A stretch of 63,632 nucleotides of DNA, counting the filler, from Aduncisulcus paluster (Eukaryota): the NCBI GenBank assembly GCA_024181965.1. It is 23 parts of 23 records of this genome, joined end to end, with 100 filler letters (N's around TTAATTAATTAA, not from the genome) between each part and the next. Parts side by side here need not be neighbours in the genome. Positions count along the whole stretch, not along the records: positions 57,758 to 60,836 come from BQXS01010345.1; 22 more parts are not named here. One strand, given 5' to 3'. Position numbers and translations under genes: made by a program. How positions within the stretch are numbered: the stretch's first letter is position 1; each line of letters begins with the position of its first letter. The notes beneath the pieces are model-generated. The model had not been told where the DNA came from. It ran no database searches and saw only the letters and a program-made list of their open reading frames with translations. Positions 44,511 to 60,936 of the stretch are shown one piece after another.

Positions 44511-45471
44511 TTCAAGGATTTTCTGAATAGTAAAACGTTTGTGATCATGAACATTTTTAAGAGAGTTTCAAAGGGTTATTATTATTGATTTTTTTTACTT
44601 ATTCGGTTCTCTTTAGGTAACATNNNNNNNNNNNNNNNNNNNNAGAGGAAGATGATGACGATAAGGACTTTGGAGATGATGATGATGATGCTTTCTATGT
44701 CTGATTCAAGGATTTTCTGAATAGTAAAACGTTTGTGATCATGAACATTTTTAAGAGAGTTTCAAAGGGTTATTATTATTGATTTTTTTTACTTATTCGG
44801 TTCTCTTTAGGTAACATACTATCACGTCATGTACAAAAATTCGACATGTTATCAACTCTCGGGAGATAGGGAACTTTTGAGCTGCAATGTCAATGGCATT
44901 GAATCAACACGTCTTCATGGAAATAATTTGCATTGAAATCATTCGTAAATGTTTTTTGATGCATGAAGATGAATGATATGGATCCTTGAAGTGTCGCTGT
45001 CGAATTTTTTTTTTTTTTTCAAGTTTTTTCACTTTTGGTCGCATTTAGGTGCTATTCGATCAAAACTGATAGTGTCATAGTGGGTTTTAGTGTNNNNNNN
45101 NNNNNNNNNNNNNATTTTTAAGAGAGTTTCAAAGGGTTATTATTATTGATTTTTTTTACTTATTCGGTTCTCTTTAGGTAACATACTATCACGTCATGTA
45201 CAAAAATTCGACATGTTATCAACTCTCGGGAGATAGGGAACTTTTGAGCTGCAATGTCAATGGCATTGAATCAACACGTCTTCATGGAAATAATTTGCAT
45301 TGAAATCATTCGTAAATGTTTTTTGATGCATGAAGATGAATGATATGGATCCTTGAAGTGTCGCTGTCGAATTTTTTTTTTTTTCAAGTTTTTTCACTTT
45401 TGGTCGCATTTAGGTGCTATTCGATCAAAACTGATAGTGTCATAGTGGGTTTTAGTGTGGTTCATCAAAAA

Positions 45472-46557
45472 ATGAAACCACAACTTATACAGCTTCTTCA
45501 TGAAGGAGATGAAAATAGCTGCCCTATTTCAAGAGATTCCCCCAATATTACGAGTCCACAGTTTTTAAGTATCAAAGCTATATATGGAACCAAGGGAAAC
45601 GAGGATAGAAATTACGACCAGAGTTTTGAAGCTCAAGCCATGATGAAAGGGGAATACAACAAGGGAGTATTTACTCATATATCAATACCTTTTAGTTCAT
45701 CTTCCCCAATGAAAGGTGCTTACATTTGTTTACATAGTCAATCGTGGACTTCACCTCCATCACACCTTATCTTCACTCTTACATCTTCAAAGGGCGAAAA
45801 AACATCCAAGAAATACGAATTTCCTGAATTTAAAGGTTTTTATTGGTTTTTCCTTCCTGTTGATCTCTCTGATGTTGTTTTCTGTGAGATTACAGGGAAA
45901 GGAAGAAACGAATCATCGGGAGCTTGTTTTGGAATCCTCTCTCTTTTTTTCTTTCGAAAAGAAACTCACGATGAAATTTTGGTTCGCAAAGCTAGAGAGA
46001 AACAATGGTATGATGCTCCCATTATAAAATCAGAGTTTGTGAAGGAAGCAGATTTTAAATCGCTAGGTAGAAATTCCATTCCTATTCCACGTGGTAATCC
46101 AATGGTTATAAAGCCTTCATTCTCAAGGATAATAGGGAAATGTGAGGCAAGGAGTAAGGAATCTAAAGAATATGATCAAAGTTCAAATGCACGAAGAATG
46201 TTGAAGGGGGAAGATTATGTATCCTTATCACATCTTTCTATCCCTTTCCCGTCACCTAATCCTATGAAAGGTGCTTATATCTGTGTGGATGAGTATAGTT
46301 CACCCTCTCTTCTCTTTACTTTCACTGATTGTGATGGCAAGAAGACATCCAAGAAGTATGAATTTACAAAACCTAAACATTACTATGAATGGCACTTTCT
46401 TCCTATTGATTTGGATAATGTTGTATTGTGTGAGATTGAAGGAGAAGGAAGATGGAAATCTAACAATTGCCGATGTTTCAATATCTATTGCCTTGTATAT
46501 ACTATGCCAGAGGAAACCATTGCAGCTGAACGATTATCTCTTCTTCCATGGAAATAA
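45472..46557 (+). CDS. Protein made of two tandem copies of an uncharacterised ~180-aa beta-rich domain
   Basis: Both halves carry YDQS..A..M.KGE, H(I/L)SIPF.S..PMKGAYIC, F.T...G.KTSKKYEF and W.FLP(V/I)DL..VV.CEI.G.G. Confidence 0.8.
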   Translation: MKPQLIQLLHEGDENSCPISRDSPNITSPQFLSIKAIYGTKGNEDRNYDQSFEAQAMMKGEYNKGVFTHISIPFSSSSPMKGAYICLHSQSWTSPPSHLIFTLTSSKGEKTSKKYEFPEFKGFYWFFLPVDLSDVVFCEITGKGRNESSGACFGILSLFFFRKETHDEILVRKAREKQWYDAPIIKSEFVKEADFKSLGRNSIPIPRGNPMVIKPSFSRIIGKCEARSKESKEYDQSSNARRMLKGEDYVSLSHLSIPFPSPNPMKGAYICVDEYSSPSLLFTFTDCDGKKTSKKYEFTKPKHYYEWHFLPIDLDNVVLCEIEGEGRWKSNNCRCFNIYCLVYTMPEETIAAERLSLLPWK

Positions 46558-56900: not shown

Positions 56901-57657
56901 ATGGTTGGAAAACTTACTGATATAAAAATTCGAAATACAAAACATAAAGATAAAGATTTTGTACTAACAGATGGTGCAGGACTTCAAATAAATATTAGAG
57001 CTAATAAAACTAAAAGATGGGAATTGATTTATAAAAGTCCTACCACGAGTAAAAGGCGAAAATTTCCATTAGGGTTATTTCCTACAATAGGATTAAAAGA
57101 TGTTAGAAATTTAAGAGATAATTATATCAATCTAATTAAGCAGGGAATTGACCCAATAGATAAAAAAAGAGAAGATGAAGCAAAAGCAAAACTAAATGAT
57201 AATAGTGATTTTATCTTAATAGCTAATGAGTGGTTATCTTATGAAGAAAAAAGAACAACACCACAAACACATAAAAGAAAAAAGGCTATTTTAGTAAATG
57301 ATAGTTATCCTTTTTTTAAGAATAAATCTATCAATGATATAAATCATCAAGATATTATTAAAGTATTAGAGATGAGATTAAATAAAACTATTTATAAATC
57401 ATCTATAAAAGCAAAACAGAACAATGGAATAGAAACAGCCAATAAACTATTTAATTACCTTGATACCATCTTTAAATTTGCTATAACTAAGGGATTATGT
57501 AAATACAATCCTTTTAACGATATTATCAAAGACTTAGTAATACCAAAAGCCAAAACTGTACATAATCCAAAACTAACAGAAACAACAGATATAAAAAAAC
57601 TTGTAAATGATGTATATAATTATCAAGGTCATTATTCAACTATAAACGCTTTAAAAT
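56901..57657 (+). mobile_element. P4-like tyrosine integrase with N-terminal arm-binding domain (3' partial); edge of a genomic island or prophage
   Basis: KLTDIKIRN...LTDGAGLQI...K.W...Y...LGLFPTIGLKDVR...GIDP, and IFKFAITKGLCKYNP. Confidence 0.9.
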
Positions 57658-57757
57658 NNNNNNNNNNNNNNNNNNNNNNNNNNNNNNNNNNNNNNNNNNN
57701 NTTAATTAATTAANNNNNNNNNNNNNNNNNNNNNNNNNNNNNNNNNNNNNNNNNNNN

Positions 57758-58016
57758 GTTCTTTATTAAAACTTCGTCCACCATAAAGAGGGGAATACTC
57801 TTCATCAAAACCAAAAAAACTCTCTATCTGCGAAAAATCAATATAAGGAAAATATTTTTCTATATAAGAGTGAATAGAGTTATCTTTTGTAATTGTACGA
57901 GAAGATATAGTAAACCTTATATTTCTATTTTTGAAATACTTTATATCTTCAATATCATTAAGTAAATTATTACTTAATGGGATACTACTAAAACTCATAT
58001 TAGTATCTATTTGCAT
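57758..58016 (-). CDS. Hypothetical protein with FGF...SPLYGGR motif (3' partial)
   Basis: Start overlaps the upstream stop. FTISSR and IESFFGFDEEYSPLYGGR look like conserved motifs. Confidence 0.65.
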
Positions 58017-59153
58017 AAACTTTCCTCTGAAAAATCAAAAATATGTCGTGTTAAGACACTACTTACATTTAAAAGTTCTGGCATAGAAGAATCAGGTATA
58101 ACAGCTATATCATATACCTGATCAACATCACCTACAAATTTCATATATGCTATGATAGAATTATCTTTTAAATTAATAACCCATACTCCAGCATAGGTCT
58201 CATCGTACATTTTACTTATAGGTGATGGGTTTTTTATCTCACTTGCACGTACTTGGCTAGTACCTACAAACATAACTCCACCATAAAAGTAAAGCCCTCT
58301 AGTAAAACCTTGTAGTTTTATCACTTCTGTTTTCTCTTTTGTTTTTGGGTTGTATTTCCACACAACCCCTAGTCCAGATTCACATACATATATCTCATCT
58401 TTATATACTTTTGGAGAGTGTGGCATGATCATCCCCTCTATTAGTATCTCATTTGTATCTATATCTATGAGTGTTCCATAATCAATTCTGCCTTGACTCC
58501 ATGAATCTTTTGAATCTTCCATATTAAATGTTGTTACATATTTTGGTTTTCCATTGAGCATAGCCATACCATTGAGATGGCATCTATCTTCTGGTACAAG
58601 TTCACTAATAAATTCAGGTTTCCATCTTGCTACAAATGAGTTATCTGGACTTAGTGTACTTAGACATGAAAAAGTAGAGTTAACAACCCAAAGCCCCTCA
58701 TCTCCCCAAGCTATATCATGGATATTTATCATCCCTGTGGTTATTGATGCTCGATGAAGATATAAGGAGTCTGCTTTTTTTACAGCTTCTATCTCTTCAT
58801 CTCTTTGTTTTTTAAGCTCTTCCATTTGCTCTTTATTTTTTTCAAGAACTTTTTTAGAAAGATTACCAGTACTATCAAGTGAACCTTTTTGGATACTTTC
58901 AAGTATATCATCTGCTCTTTTGAACTCTAAAACTTGATTGAATGTACCTAAAGTANNNNNNNNNNNNNNNNNNNNTTAGACTTGTATCTATATTCTCTCC
59001 ATCACTTCTTATCAAAATCAATCTTCTACTTTGATAGCTTGTAACAGCTAATGAAATATTTAAAGCTTTTAAAATACCTGCAAAATTATCTGTTGATGTA
59101 CTTGAAAAATCAAATGCAGTTTCATTTGACTCTTCTTTGGTTTTAGTTTCCAT
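58007..59153 (-). CDS. TIGR03032 (DUF4915) family protein, interrupted by a 20-N gap
   Basis: ISLAVTSYQS.RLI, TLGTFNQV, ITTGMINIHDIAW, VNSTFSCL, WKP.FISELVPEDRCHLNG, MPHSP and GFTRGL. Confidence 0.88.
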
Positions 59154-60330
59154 GTATCTCCTTTTTCATAGTTTGTATTATCTCCTGAATTGGTTTATTT
59201 TTATTTTGTGCTATTTTTAGGGCTAATAGTCCACTTATAATTGGGGCTGTAGCAGATGTACCACCAAATTGTCGATAAGTTCCATTTTCTTTTGTAGTGA
59301 TTACTCCGCTTTGTATTTTAAAATCCACCATGTCCCCATAGTTACTATACTTTTGTGTAGCACCCACTGTTATCACTTCAGGTATTGAAGCTTCTATAGA
59401 GTAAGGTTCTATCTCTTTTGCACTATTTCCTGCAGCAAATACCACTGCTGTATTTTTGGTAATATTCTTTATCACATCATACACAGGCTCTAACAGTAGT
59501 GGAGAGTTCCAACTACAGTTGATTATATCTGCTCCTGCTTTGTGAGCTACCGTAAAAGCTAATATAGTATCTGAAGTGGTATTTGTAGTTTGTCTTATAG
59601 CTATTAAGTTAGCTCTTGGTGCTATTCCATCTATCCCTATATTGTTATGTTGTGCGAATATTATTCCTACTACTTGCGTTCCATGAGTGTCAACTTTTAG
59701 CTTAGAAGACGAATCAAGGTTTTTATTGTCAGCATCATAAGAAAATAATAGATTTACACCATTTAAGTCTTCATGTTCTAAATTAAATCCATCATCTATG
59801 ATAGCAATATTTACACCTTCACCTTTTGTGGTTTTCCAAATACTATCTAAGTTATATTTTTTTGTTATGTTTTGAGTNNNNNNNNNNNNNNNNNNNNNNN
59901 NNNNNNNNNNNNNNNNNNNNNNNNNNNNNNNNNNNNNNNNNNNNNNNNNNNNNNNNNNNNNNNNNNNNNNNNNNNNNNNNNNNNNNNNNNNNNNNNNNNN
60001 NNNNNNNNNNNNNNGTTTAAAATTTATATCTTTTGTTTGAGATATATTTGGTTGTGCATAGATGATATATTCTTTGTTTGCTAACTCTTGTGAGTAGTTT
60101 AAAGAGTCATTTGAATCTACCAAGTAAAGATTTGAATCATCTAAAAATGCTATCTGTCTTAAAGGTTTTTTCAATCTATTTATTAGTTGTTTTTTAGATA
60201 GTGTTGATTTAACTATCACACTATCTAATATAATAAAATCACTGCACACTTTATTATTAAAATTTGAGATACAGATATCTTTTGACAAGAGAGATGACAT
60301 AAAAATTAACACTCCTAAAACTATTTTCAT
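59143..60330 (-). CDS. Secreted S8 (subtilisin-like) serine peptidase
   Basis: Signal peptide, D/H/S triad motifs (IAIIDDG, THGTQV, GTSATAP) and oxyanion FAAGN. N gap at 59878-60014. Confidence 0.92.
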
Positions 60331-60836
60331 TTATACCTCTTGTTTATATAATCTAATATAGTATTTACATTTTCTTTTAAAGTGTCATTTTTTAAACCTA
60401 TCTCAGGAGTCATCGGTTTTTCATAAACAGAATCTATCCCTGTAAAATCTTTTAACTCCCCTTCTCTTGCTTTTTTATACAAACCTTTAGGGTCTCTTTT
60501 TTCACAAACTTCAAGGGGCGTATCTACAAACACTTCTATAAATTCATCATCATTTACTAAACTTCTAGCATATTCTCTATCTTTTTGAAATGGACTTATA
60601 AAAGCAGTGATAACTATAAGTCCTGCATCTAAAAGAATTTGGGAAAGGTGGGCTACTCTTCTGATATTTTCTTCTCTATCTTCTTGGGAAAACCCCAAGT
60701 CACTATTTAATCCAGTTCTTAGATTATCACCATCTAAAAGATATGTTTTATACCCTTGATTGTGCAATTCTACTTCAAGAGCATTTGCAAGGGTAGATTT
60801 ACCACTAGCACTTAGTCCTGTAAACCATACTATATA
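60327..60836 (-). CDS. cysC: Adenylyl-sulfate (APS) kinase (5' partial)
   Basis: [38 protein letters not shown] and FTGIDSVYE. Confidence 0.96.
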
Positions 60837-60936
60837 NNNNNNNNNNNNNNNNNNNNNNNNNNNNNNNNNNNNNNNNNNNNTTAATTAATTAANNNNNNNN
60901 NNNNNNNNNNNNNNNNNNNNNNNNNNNNNNNNNNNN

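Follow-up and report, generated by a model that had tools for sequence, protein, structure and literature searches.

The nearest described relative of the system considered here is RaxX-RaxSTAB of Xanthomonas, in which, as far as the available text of PMC7777525 describes it, a leader-bearing ribosomal precursor is sulfated in the cytoplasm, and the leader is then removed and the product exported. We analyzed a window of 63,632 nucleotides (nt), filler included, from assembly GCA_024181965.1 of Aduncisulcus paluster. In this window, one contig (57758..60836) carries four overlapping genes for the adenylyl-sulfate (APS) kinase CysC, a secreted S8 subtilase, a protein of the TIGR03032/DUF4915 family, and a last, unnamed open reading frame (ORF) with a U32-like fold. 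The four genes are probably a fragment, the enzyme half, of an undescribed bacterial kit, which would modify a leader-bearing secreted protein before export and would include two uncharacterised enzymes. With a confidence just above even, we read the kit as one that uses a leader to direct the sulfation and maturation of a giant surface protein built of immunoglobulin (Ig) repeats.

As in RaxX, tyrosine is a possible acceptor. Compared with RaxX-RaxSTAB, however, an Ig-stalk protein of 1,000-3,300 aa with a Sec-type signal would be the client, a secreted S8 enzyme instead of a domain of an ABC exporter would act as peptidase, and many copies have no match to a canonical sulfotransferase. A type I exporter was not seen among the scanned neighbours, some ORFs being unscanned and many giants being cut by contig ends. 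A ribosomally synthesized and post-translationally modified peptide (RiPP) of the RaxX/RaxST type, with a canonical sulfotransferase using 3'-phosphoadenosine-5'-phosphosulfate (PAPS), a short double-glycine precursor and a peptidase-containing ABC exporter, was thus not what we found; the client is a giant with a Sec signal and the sulfotransferase is optional. Cytoplasmic glycosyltransferases such as HMW1C (with HMW1) and TibC/Aah (with TibA/AIDA-I) are encoded beside a Sec-exported adhesin and modify its precursor along the whole passenger. The present locus resembles them in that the modifier would be cytoplasmic, would have its gene next to that of the Sec-exported client and would act before export, whereas the leader motif, the dedicated protease, and the PAPS supply point to a tip-limited, sulfur-based change.

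Three enzyme families are also comparable. Arylsulfate sulfotransferases (ASSTs; E. coli ASST 3elq, D. hafniense ASST, Cpz4 9kf6; PF05935/PF14269) have the same six-bladed propeller, a fold common to many unrelated families, and the same His / His-x-Asn / His order (His154/His201/Asn203/His254 in TIGR03032). The D. hafniense site is made up of His220, His283, Asn285, Arg301 and His350, with His350 as the sulfo carrier, according to the accessible part of bioRxiv 10.64898/2026.10.08.757636. Unlike the ASSTs, TIGR03032 has no profile homology to them, no Arg in the ASST place and no signal peptide, and it has a genomic tie to PAPS synthesis. In peptidyl-alpha-hydroxyglycine lyase (PAL; 3fw0), three central His bind the zinc ion. 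PAL resembles TIGR03032 in its six-bladed propeller, and its central His and its action after a hydroxylase may have counterparts in TIGR03032, whereas it has NHL-type repeats and no PAPS link; its six blades and zinc site are described in the part of PMC10303134 at hand. Finally, the U32 family (UbiU/UbiV, TrhP, RlhA; Mk0906 5d88; PF01136), whose members are proposed to be prephenate-dependent Fe-S hydroxylases in the available text of PMC10990095, has a TIM-barrel and four conserved Cys as the last ORF's relatives do. These relatives, however, fall below the Pfam cut-off, have their own Cys spacing, are fused to three sulfotransferase families, DUF4915 or TPR, and stand in a context of protein or peptide decoration, not of quinone or RNA.

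Gene coupling, probable client and leader

The four genes fill one entire contig of 3,079 nt and 31% GC (BQXS01010345.1, G000:C10345), and both outer genes are truncated by its ends: cysC lacks its 5' end, and the first 86 codons are all that is present of the last ORF. The first-pass annotation had described four same-strand genes, each overlapping the next. All four lie on the minus strand, and the three overlaps are those that it gave: ATGA between the cysC stop and the S8 start (60330-60327), 11 nt between S8 and TIGR03032 (59153-59143), and 10 nt between TIGR03032 and the last ORF (58016-58007). The families of cysC, S8 and TIGR03032 were matched by Pfam and NCBIfam. Since the 11-nt overlap was found again in eight related loci (L004-L007, L009, L012-L014) and the 4-nt cysC/S8 overlap in L010, the gene coupling is inherited and not a matter of chance.

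The S8 product (PF00082, E 2e-31) has a signal-like N-terminal segment and an intact Asp/His/Ser triad and oxyanion Asn (motifs IIDDG, HGT, AAGN, GTSAT), and is 51-80% identical to the S8 genes of 12 related loci. In contigs of three public runs, one of which may be where this DNA comes from, 2 letters stand in place of the gene's 137-N placeholder; therefore, the gene is in frame and encodes approximately 350 aa, and a broken S8 gene is ruled out. In L100 (G610), duplicated S8/P-domain proteases and duplicated Ser-run lipoproteins flank TIGR03032, an S8-TIGR03032 pair with a different client.

GTDB genomes were scanned with the TIGR03032 protein, yielding 31 loci with proteins 40-86% identical from Campylobacterota and Gammaproteobacteria. 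As judged by ORF clustering, the neighbours were S8 (29 loci, adjoining TIGR03032 in 29), the giant (27), three tandem tail-collar genes (18), an Asp/Asn beta-hydroxylase (15) and GNAT (14); other neighbours of TIGR03032 varied (TPR, LicD/CTP-transferase, carbamoyltransferase, GNAT, RhuM-family, AraC and integrase). Three loci carried cysC within 10 kb, directly before S8 as in the window (L010), as cysD-cysNC (L006), or on the opposite strand (L030), and none of the 31 gave a match to the U32-like gene. From these counts, S8-TIGR03032-giant is the core, to which cysC and the last ORF are optional additions. The nearest gene orders are cysC-S8-TIGR03032-DsbC-like-giant in L010 and S8-[U32-like+sulfotransferase]-TIGR03032-giant in L046 and L045. 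L046 is a near-complete twin, with the order AspH-cysD-cysNC-GNAT-3 collars-DsbC-like-S8-[U32-like+sulfotransferase]-TIGR03032-giant. The DsbC-like gene is present in 4 of the 31 loci and in L046.

Three tandem phage tail-collar genes (PF07484, ~175 aa), with GNAT and often DUF6916, were seen beside giant-adhesin and lasso-type loci (L007, L011, L012, L016-L027, L029, L033, L034, L046, L047, L051, L054). Their products could be further clients or a trimeric tip. An unnamed domain of ~165 aa is fused to TIGR03032 in L013:1069-2754, and ORFs or N-terminal domains of similar size follow TIGR03032 in L092:10608-11096, L099:2424-2924 and L102:10527-11981.

The giants range from about 750 to over 3,300 aa and are Ig/cadherin-repeat proteins. 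As read from their sequences, they start with a Sec-type hydrophobic segment that includes an invariant Pro, and their C-termini are outer-membrane-barrel-like, serve as transmembrane anchors or are of other kinds. A giant client of the type I secretion system (T1SS), of the repeats-in-toxin (RTX) kind, had been suggested at first pass. A giant secreted protein is indeed likely (27 of 31 loci), and its T1SS/RTX nature is rejected in view of the N-terminal Sec-type signals and of RTX motifs numbering 0-2 per giant, with no exporter among the neighbours scanned.

Behind the signal, the giants have a conserved leader (approximately residues 55-115, ending in R-K-E-F-A), a hypervariable tip of 35-60 aa, and the Ig stalk. 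The leader motifs are P-F-x-x-F, V-L-x-F-L-x-x-x-G-L-L, S-G-[ED] and R-K-E-F-A. A hidden Markov model (HMM) of the leader, run over 1,128 ORFs of the fetched loci, was significant only at the N-termini of giants beside window-type TIGR03032, with 19 of the matches being training rows. It missed the giants of L029, L031, L032 and L033, the 1,930-aa protein of L034, and the clients of other TIGR03032 subfamilies; it was used instead of a strict regular expression, which caught 10 of 29 giants. The 35 residues after the leader (25 distinct sequences) were enriched in Cys (9.5 vs 0.2%), Tyr (5.6 vs 2.1%) and Trp (2.4 vs 0.4%). By analogy, this leader with its variable core recalls the precursors of ribosomal peptides. 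Unlinked giant pieces with a leader end and a Cys-rich tip (C1712), together with tandem collar genes, are present in the window's own assembly.

We predicted the complex of the L005 TIGR03032 protein with residues 1-160 of its giant, custom alignments not being used. The scores were 0.86, 0.83 and 0.86, compared to 0.00, 0.00 and 0.55 for the controls, against a mark that 51 of 78 solved pairs and 2 of 108 mismatched pairs reached. The runs agreed in at least 43% of contacts, with a predicted local distance difference test (pLDDT) of 40-42 for the partner. The confident interface sets residues 77-106 of the giant against propeller residues 14-31 and 54-61, and it holds four of the six conserved leader columns besides the start Met (F83, L84, L89, G102). 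Since no solved relative of TIGR03032 was found by sequence, memory of a like complex is unlikely. The leader is thus predicted by the models to dock on TIGR03032.

PAPS supply, the propeller and the U32-like domain

The cysC product matches PF01583 (E 2e-69) and TIGR00455 (247.5 bits, cut-off 138.7) and has the P-loop GLSASGKST. Another contig of the same assembly (L077) carries the 5' part of a 95%-identical cysC (170/179 nt), whose start codon is preceded by an intergenic stretch with a TTGACA-16-TATATT site, sites of this type being no commoner than in shuffled sequence. Judged from this copy, the window cysC is probably a stand-alone gene heading the operon. It is unlikely to be the tail of a CysNC fusion, since the L077 start codon follows non-coding DNA.

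Among 184 Arcobacteraceae genomes, DUF4915 is present in 16 and APS kinase in 43. The kinase was found in 14 of the 16 TIGR03032 carriers (12/12 full-length) compared to 29 of 168 non-carriers (Fisher p 2e-8), and in a sample of 201 Sulfurimonadaceae in 10/10 carriers compared to 51/191 others (p 4e-6), the p values being uncorrected and ignoring kinship, genome size and completeness. When both Campylobacterota sets were pooled, 24 of 26 genomes with TIGR03032 and 80 of 359 without it had the kinase. Moreover, TIGR03032 and the kinase are at most 3 kb apart in 8 of the 12 carriers with a full-length gene among the Arcobacteraceae, and at most 9 kb apart in 3 of 9 Sulfurimonadaceae. The adjacency takes at least four arrangements and spans two subfamilies approximately 31% identical. 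The neighbours of the second subfamily, DUF4915-TPR, are two-partner-secretion and autotransporter proteins; since many cysC-adjacent carriers belong to it, the cysC link survives a change of subfamily and of client.

The DUF4915-TPR proteins (~480 aa) were seen in L089-L092, L101-L103 and L108 with cysC, a small alpha/beta-hydrolase lipoprotein, and two-partner-secretion/autotransporter arrays. Most of the secreted proteins there have a common extended N-terminal signal, Y-x-S-x-F-R-I-L-K-G-G-K-I-S-L, and the window-type leader was not found in these loci.

In all five carrier genomes checked, a separate cysK-cysH-cysD-cysN cluster lies away from cysC, and its CysH has CC and CxxC, which we take to be the APS-reductase-type pattern. 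Therefore, CysC is not needed for sulfate assimilation in these carriers. An ordinary assimilatory setting of cysC was not seen in the five genomes; the window's own upstream DNA lies beyond the contig, where the L077 copy shows an intergenic stretch. The earlier proposal that PAPS feeds a dedicated pathway is supported by this separation. Furthermore, no sulfotransferase match was obtained with PF13469 or PF00685, the families covered (PF09037, PF17784, PF19798 and PF06990 were left out), in 10 of 22 carriers, including two single-contig genomes and the genome of L010. PF03567 was not matched in five genomes, in a search whose positive control was silent too. The 10 carriers without a match suggest that PAPS is consumed by TIGR03032 itself or else by some unrecognised partner.

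The window TIGR03032 protein scores 303.7 bits with TIGR03032 (cut-off 251.5) and 298 bits with PF16261 (DUF4915; cut-off 35, E 1e-88). No signal was seen in it, and it is read as cytoplasmic. An unbridged gap of 20 N (58956-58975) stands for approximately 16 codons by homology. The model of its L005 homologue (84% identical, pLDDT 88) is a six-bladed beta-propeller. The best structural matches were YWTD receptors (Z 24.7), followed at some ranks by ASST (Z 20.3, root-mean-square deviation (rmsd) 3.4, 271 aligned residues, rank 17 among propellers), PAL (Z 20.1) and Cpz4 (Z 19.4, rmsd 4.0, 267 aligned), with lactonase-type propellers tying with ASST. Since all of these match, the fold does not choose among propeller families. 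His154, Asn167, Asp198, Cys200, His201, Asn203, His254, Arg294, Ser308 and Arg311 are invariant in 48 TIGR03032 sequences (30-100% identity), and in the model the three His are found where strands begin, on consecutive blades. A PDB sequence search with the TIGR03032 profile found nothing, and the ESM Atlas gave it no named neighbour. As modelled, TIGR03032 may work like an ASST, a class to which profile comparison showed it no homology.

The last ORF has no real match in Pfam or NCBIfam. Its domain stands at the N-terminus of four longer relatives, fused to DUF4915 in two (P0001, P0002) and to PF00685 in two, and 19 shorter relatives have 235-331 aa; the 8 best BLAST matches of the window fragment are all fusions. 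In the first-pass annotation the ORF, recognised by its SPLYGGR motif, was tentatively called U32-like, and this was right on the fold, which we read from the full-length homologue P0016 and not from the 86 residues of the window. The P0016 model (pLDDT 86) retrieved U32 Mk0906 (5d88) first in both structural searches (Z 15.3, rmsd 4.4, 217 aligned; next Z 10.5; Foldseek E 6e-8), and in the ESM Atlas it met rows with PF01136 at TM 0.74. A PDB sequence search with the U32-like profile found nothing. Two of the three nearest Atlas clusters of P0016 are mostly phage (83% and 56% viruses), and one structural-neighbour cluster is fused to PqqD.

The U32-like profile reached 883 cluster representatives at E<=0.001 and 346 at 1e-10. 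We scanned 122 of the best 150 relatives, those left out being mostly short or partial ones and two already included. None of the 122 passed the PF01136 cut-off (22.4 bits; best 16.2), and 21 carry a sulfotransferase domain of one of three Pfam families on either side. The motif C-x3-C-x4-C is present in 131 of 153 relatives, and 127 of the 131 have another Cys no more than 35 residues away; the spacing typical of the family is C-x3-C-x4-C-x16-18-C. In the window copy the motif lies beyond the contig end. Among 23 U32-like loci (22 metagenomic, 1 genomic), there were a sulfotransferase fusion in 10, a sulfotransferase gene in 19, lasso-type genes (HPr-kinase-like, AsnB, PqqD, B2 or nucleotidyltransferase) in 18, and TIGR03032 in 3 (L043, L045, L046), where the U32-like+sulfotransferase fusion is directly beside it. 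The U32-like gene was found in one of five genomes and in none of 401 sampled Campylobacterota, a set without a positive control. The rest of the window gene was not found in its own assembly or in public contigs; going by the related sequences, the domain is probably fused to, or followed by, a sulfotransferase. O2-independent hydroxylation by it is an inference from the modelled fold.

The lasso-peptide-type clusters with a U32-like domain (L044, L047, L048, L050-L054, L056-L065) hold HPr-kinase-like, AsnB/cyclase, PqqD, B2 protease, nucleotidyltransferase and ABC genes. They carry one to several sulfotransferases, and sometimes three tail-collar genes, GNAT, GT41 or SPASM proteins. A hydroxylated and sulfated lasso-type product is possible.

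Proposed route and alternative explanations

The favoured reading, sulfation and maturation directed by a leader, is drawn from protein families, gene context, co-occurrence, folds and leader conservation; the docking is predicted, and from these we infer every chemical step and the S8 cut site. CysC would convert APS from the housekeeping CysDN to PAPS, with the gene context suggesting dedicated use. Cytoplasmic TIGR03032 would grip the unexported giant by its leader and bring the tip to the His/Arg-lined centre of the propeller. There, a sulfuryl group would be placed on a Tyr, Ser or Thr of the tip, or on a newly made hydroxyl, either by TIGR03032 itself or with TIGR03032 assisting. The U32-like, putative Fe-S domain, joined in most of its nearest relatives to a canonical sulfotransferase, is optional and may hydroxylate an aromatic group without O2, giving a sulfate acceptor or carrier; it would then do under anaerobic conditions what the Asp/Asn-hydroxylase and PhyH genes do in other copies; a U32-like/sulfotransferase protein would add a second sulfation route. 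After Sec export, S8 would cut the leader off near R-K-E-F-A, and a DsbC-like protein would close the tip disulfides, so that a decorated, strain-variable tip would be exposed. The three tail-collar proteins, GNAT and hydroxylases would be further optional parts.

That TIGR03032 is itself the transferase is a tentative proposal, held with less confidence than the reading as a whole. More doubtful still is the full proposal, in which TIGR03032/DUF4915 would form a protein sulfotransferase class of its own: a histidine propeller using PAPS would read a leader in RiPP fashion and sulfate the hypervariable, disulfide-knotted tips of Sec-exported giants, with a U32-type Fe-S hydroxylase adding acceptor hydroxyls in the absence of oxygen and the subtilase unmasking the tip. 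If it were true, bacterial protein sulfation would extend far past RaxX, a His-propeller that uses PAPS would break the textbook division of sulfotransferases into PAPS-dependent and PAPS-independent ones, leader-directed peptide chemistry would extend to giant adhesins, and bacteria would display libraries of sulfated mini-peptides on Ig stalks. TIGR03032/DUF4915, which is very conserved, gains a candidate donor (PAPS), docking peptide (~30 residues), substrate (the tip) and candidate catalytic residues (His154, His201, Asn203, His254, Arg294, Arg311). O2-independent hydroxylation may now also be sought in the U32-fold family, whose clusters number at least several hundred and which has ties to sulfotransferases and lasso-type clusters. 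We found no published work naming TIGR03032 or DUF4915, and none joining U32, UbiV and sulfotransferase, in a search outside which lay most subscription papers and all supplements.

Several points weigh against the sulfation reading, including the uncorrected p values given above. The four-gene order, taken at first pass for an operon, was not found as a conserved one, with cysC directly before S8 in 1 of 31 loci and the U32-like gene in none. cysC lies within 10 kb of TIGR03032 in only 3 of the 31, several of which are from Gammaproteobacteria; nine of the 31 are Pseudoalteromonas, so that the neighbour counts are not independent. Kinship enters the co-occurrence counts as well, G164, G248, G442 and G485 having one common arrangement. 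The kinase gene is absent from 141 of 184 Arcobacteraceae and present without TIGR03032 in 29, and PAPS therefore has other uses. The client gene is off the contig, and in L011 and L028 the leader is present with S8 not in view. TIGR03032 occurs in only 3 of the 23 U32-like loci, 18 being lasso-type clusters. As to the chemistry, ASSTs use aryl sulfates and not PAPS, according to the available text of PMC13426309. ASST ranked only 17th among propellers, and hhalign of DUF4915 with the ASST family gave probabilities of 0.2% and 1.0%, in a comparison made weak by its ASST set of 34 mostly similar Campylobacterota proteins. The ASST-type Arg approximately 18 residues after His-x-Asn is not there (Thr216/Phe218), the invariant Arg294 and Arg311 lying elsewhere. 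In the docking, the control scoring 0.55 paired the same partner, poorly folded and sticky, with an unrelated protein.

The alternative that survives best, which we consider unlikely, is that TIGR03032 is a leader-binding scaffold, a chaperone, or a PAL-like metal-dependent hydrolase or lyase without sulfuryl transfer. The client would be passed to whichever enzyme is at hand (glycosyltransferase, GNAT, hydroxylase or sulfotransferase), and PAPS would be used by canonical or undetected sulfotransferases, perhaps on a glycan. The tie of PAL, a six-bladed zinc enzyme in the accessible part of PMC10303134, and of the lactonase-type propellers with ASST is consistent with this, as are the invariant Asp198, Cys200 and Asn167, which could be metal ligands, and the wide variation of the neighbours from TPR and LicD/CTP-transferase to carbamoyltransferase and GNAT. 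However, cysC adjoins TIGR03032 in genomes without a PF00685/PF13469 match, two of them single-contig, and in P0001 and P0002 the U32-like domain is fused to DUF4915 where other relatives have a sulfotransferase.

An improbable explanation is a two-step relay. In it, the U32-like hydroxylase would make a small aromatic carrier, which a canonical PAPS sulfotransferase, here provided by the C-terminal portion missing from the U32-like gene, would sulfate; TIGR03032, as a true ASST-like enzyme, would then move the sulfate from the carrier to the tip. The model for it is the Cpz8/Cpz4 relay for caprazamycin, with its Cpz8 step. Cpz4 is a biosynthetic arylsulfate sulfotransferase (PMC13426309, available text), and the structural alignments with ASST (271 residues) and Cpz4 (267 residues) are the longest obtained; the three loci with the fusion directly beside TIGR03032 (L043, L045, L046) also fit. 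Nevertheless, no PF00685/PF13469 gene was found in 10 of 22 carriers, and no U32-like gene in any of the 31 loci, in four of five genomes or in the 401 sampled Campylobacterota; therefore, the relay cannot be the general rule. Least probable of all is a mosaic island, with S8-TIGR03032-giant as a real unit, and with cysC and the U32-like gene merely carried along in a surface-decoration island and functionally unconnected to that unit. In its favour, the four-gene order was seen nowhere else, unrelated genes (RhuM-family, AraC, GNAT and integrase) occupy slots next to TIGR03032, and the U32-like family is mostly in lasso-type clusters. Against it, the cysC-TIGR03032 adjacency recurs in its several arrangements in two distant subfamilies with different clients (Ig giants; two-partner-secretion/autotransporter), and the U32-like domain is fused to DUF4915.

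Contig, assembly and remaining sequence of the window

The features of the contig are collected in Table 1. The window consists of contigs strung together by N44-TTAATTAATTAA-N44 spacers, and since such spacers bound the contig on both sides, nothing else in the window is linked to the four genes.

Table 1. Features of the four-gene contig and its borders (window coordinates)
Feature	Position	Strand	Basis or remark
cysC, APS kinase; 169 codons present, 5' end beyond contig end	60327..60836	-	PF01583, TIGR00455
S8 subtilase, secreted, ~350 aa; proposed leader peptidase	59143..60330	-	PF00082, signal-like N-terminus, triad
TIGR03032/DUF4915, cytoplasmic; proposed leader-binding modifying enzyme	58007..59153	-	TIGR03032 HMM, homologue model
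U32-fold TIM-barrel domain, first 86 codons	57758..58016	-	Homologue fusions, homologue model
Assembly spacer (N44-TTAATTAATTAA-N44), contig left end	57658..57757	.	Integrase fragment beyond is unlinked
Assembly spacer, contig right end	60837..60936	.	Spacer letters

The source assembly has 23,235 contigs, in which eukaryotic genes are mixed with short bacterial contigs. Two further TIGR03032 copies are present in it, on G000:C6775 (L002, 87% identical) and G000:C3220 (L003, 69%), and with them several related strains or loci. In L002 a DsbC-like gene follows TIGR03032, as in L010. Within the window, a cut tyrosine integrase gene (56901-57657) lies on its own contig and adjoins the four genes by concatenation only. 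Eukaryotic genes occupy 1-29488 and 45340-46557 and encode ankyrin-DHHC, Spt6-like, alpha-kinase, WD40 and ERG4/24-like proteins, together with a repeat protein without a Pfam match.

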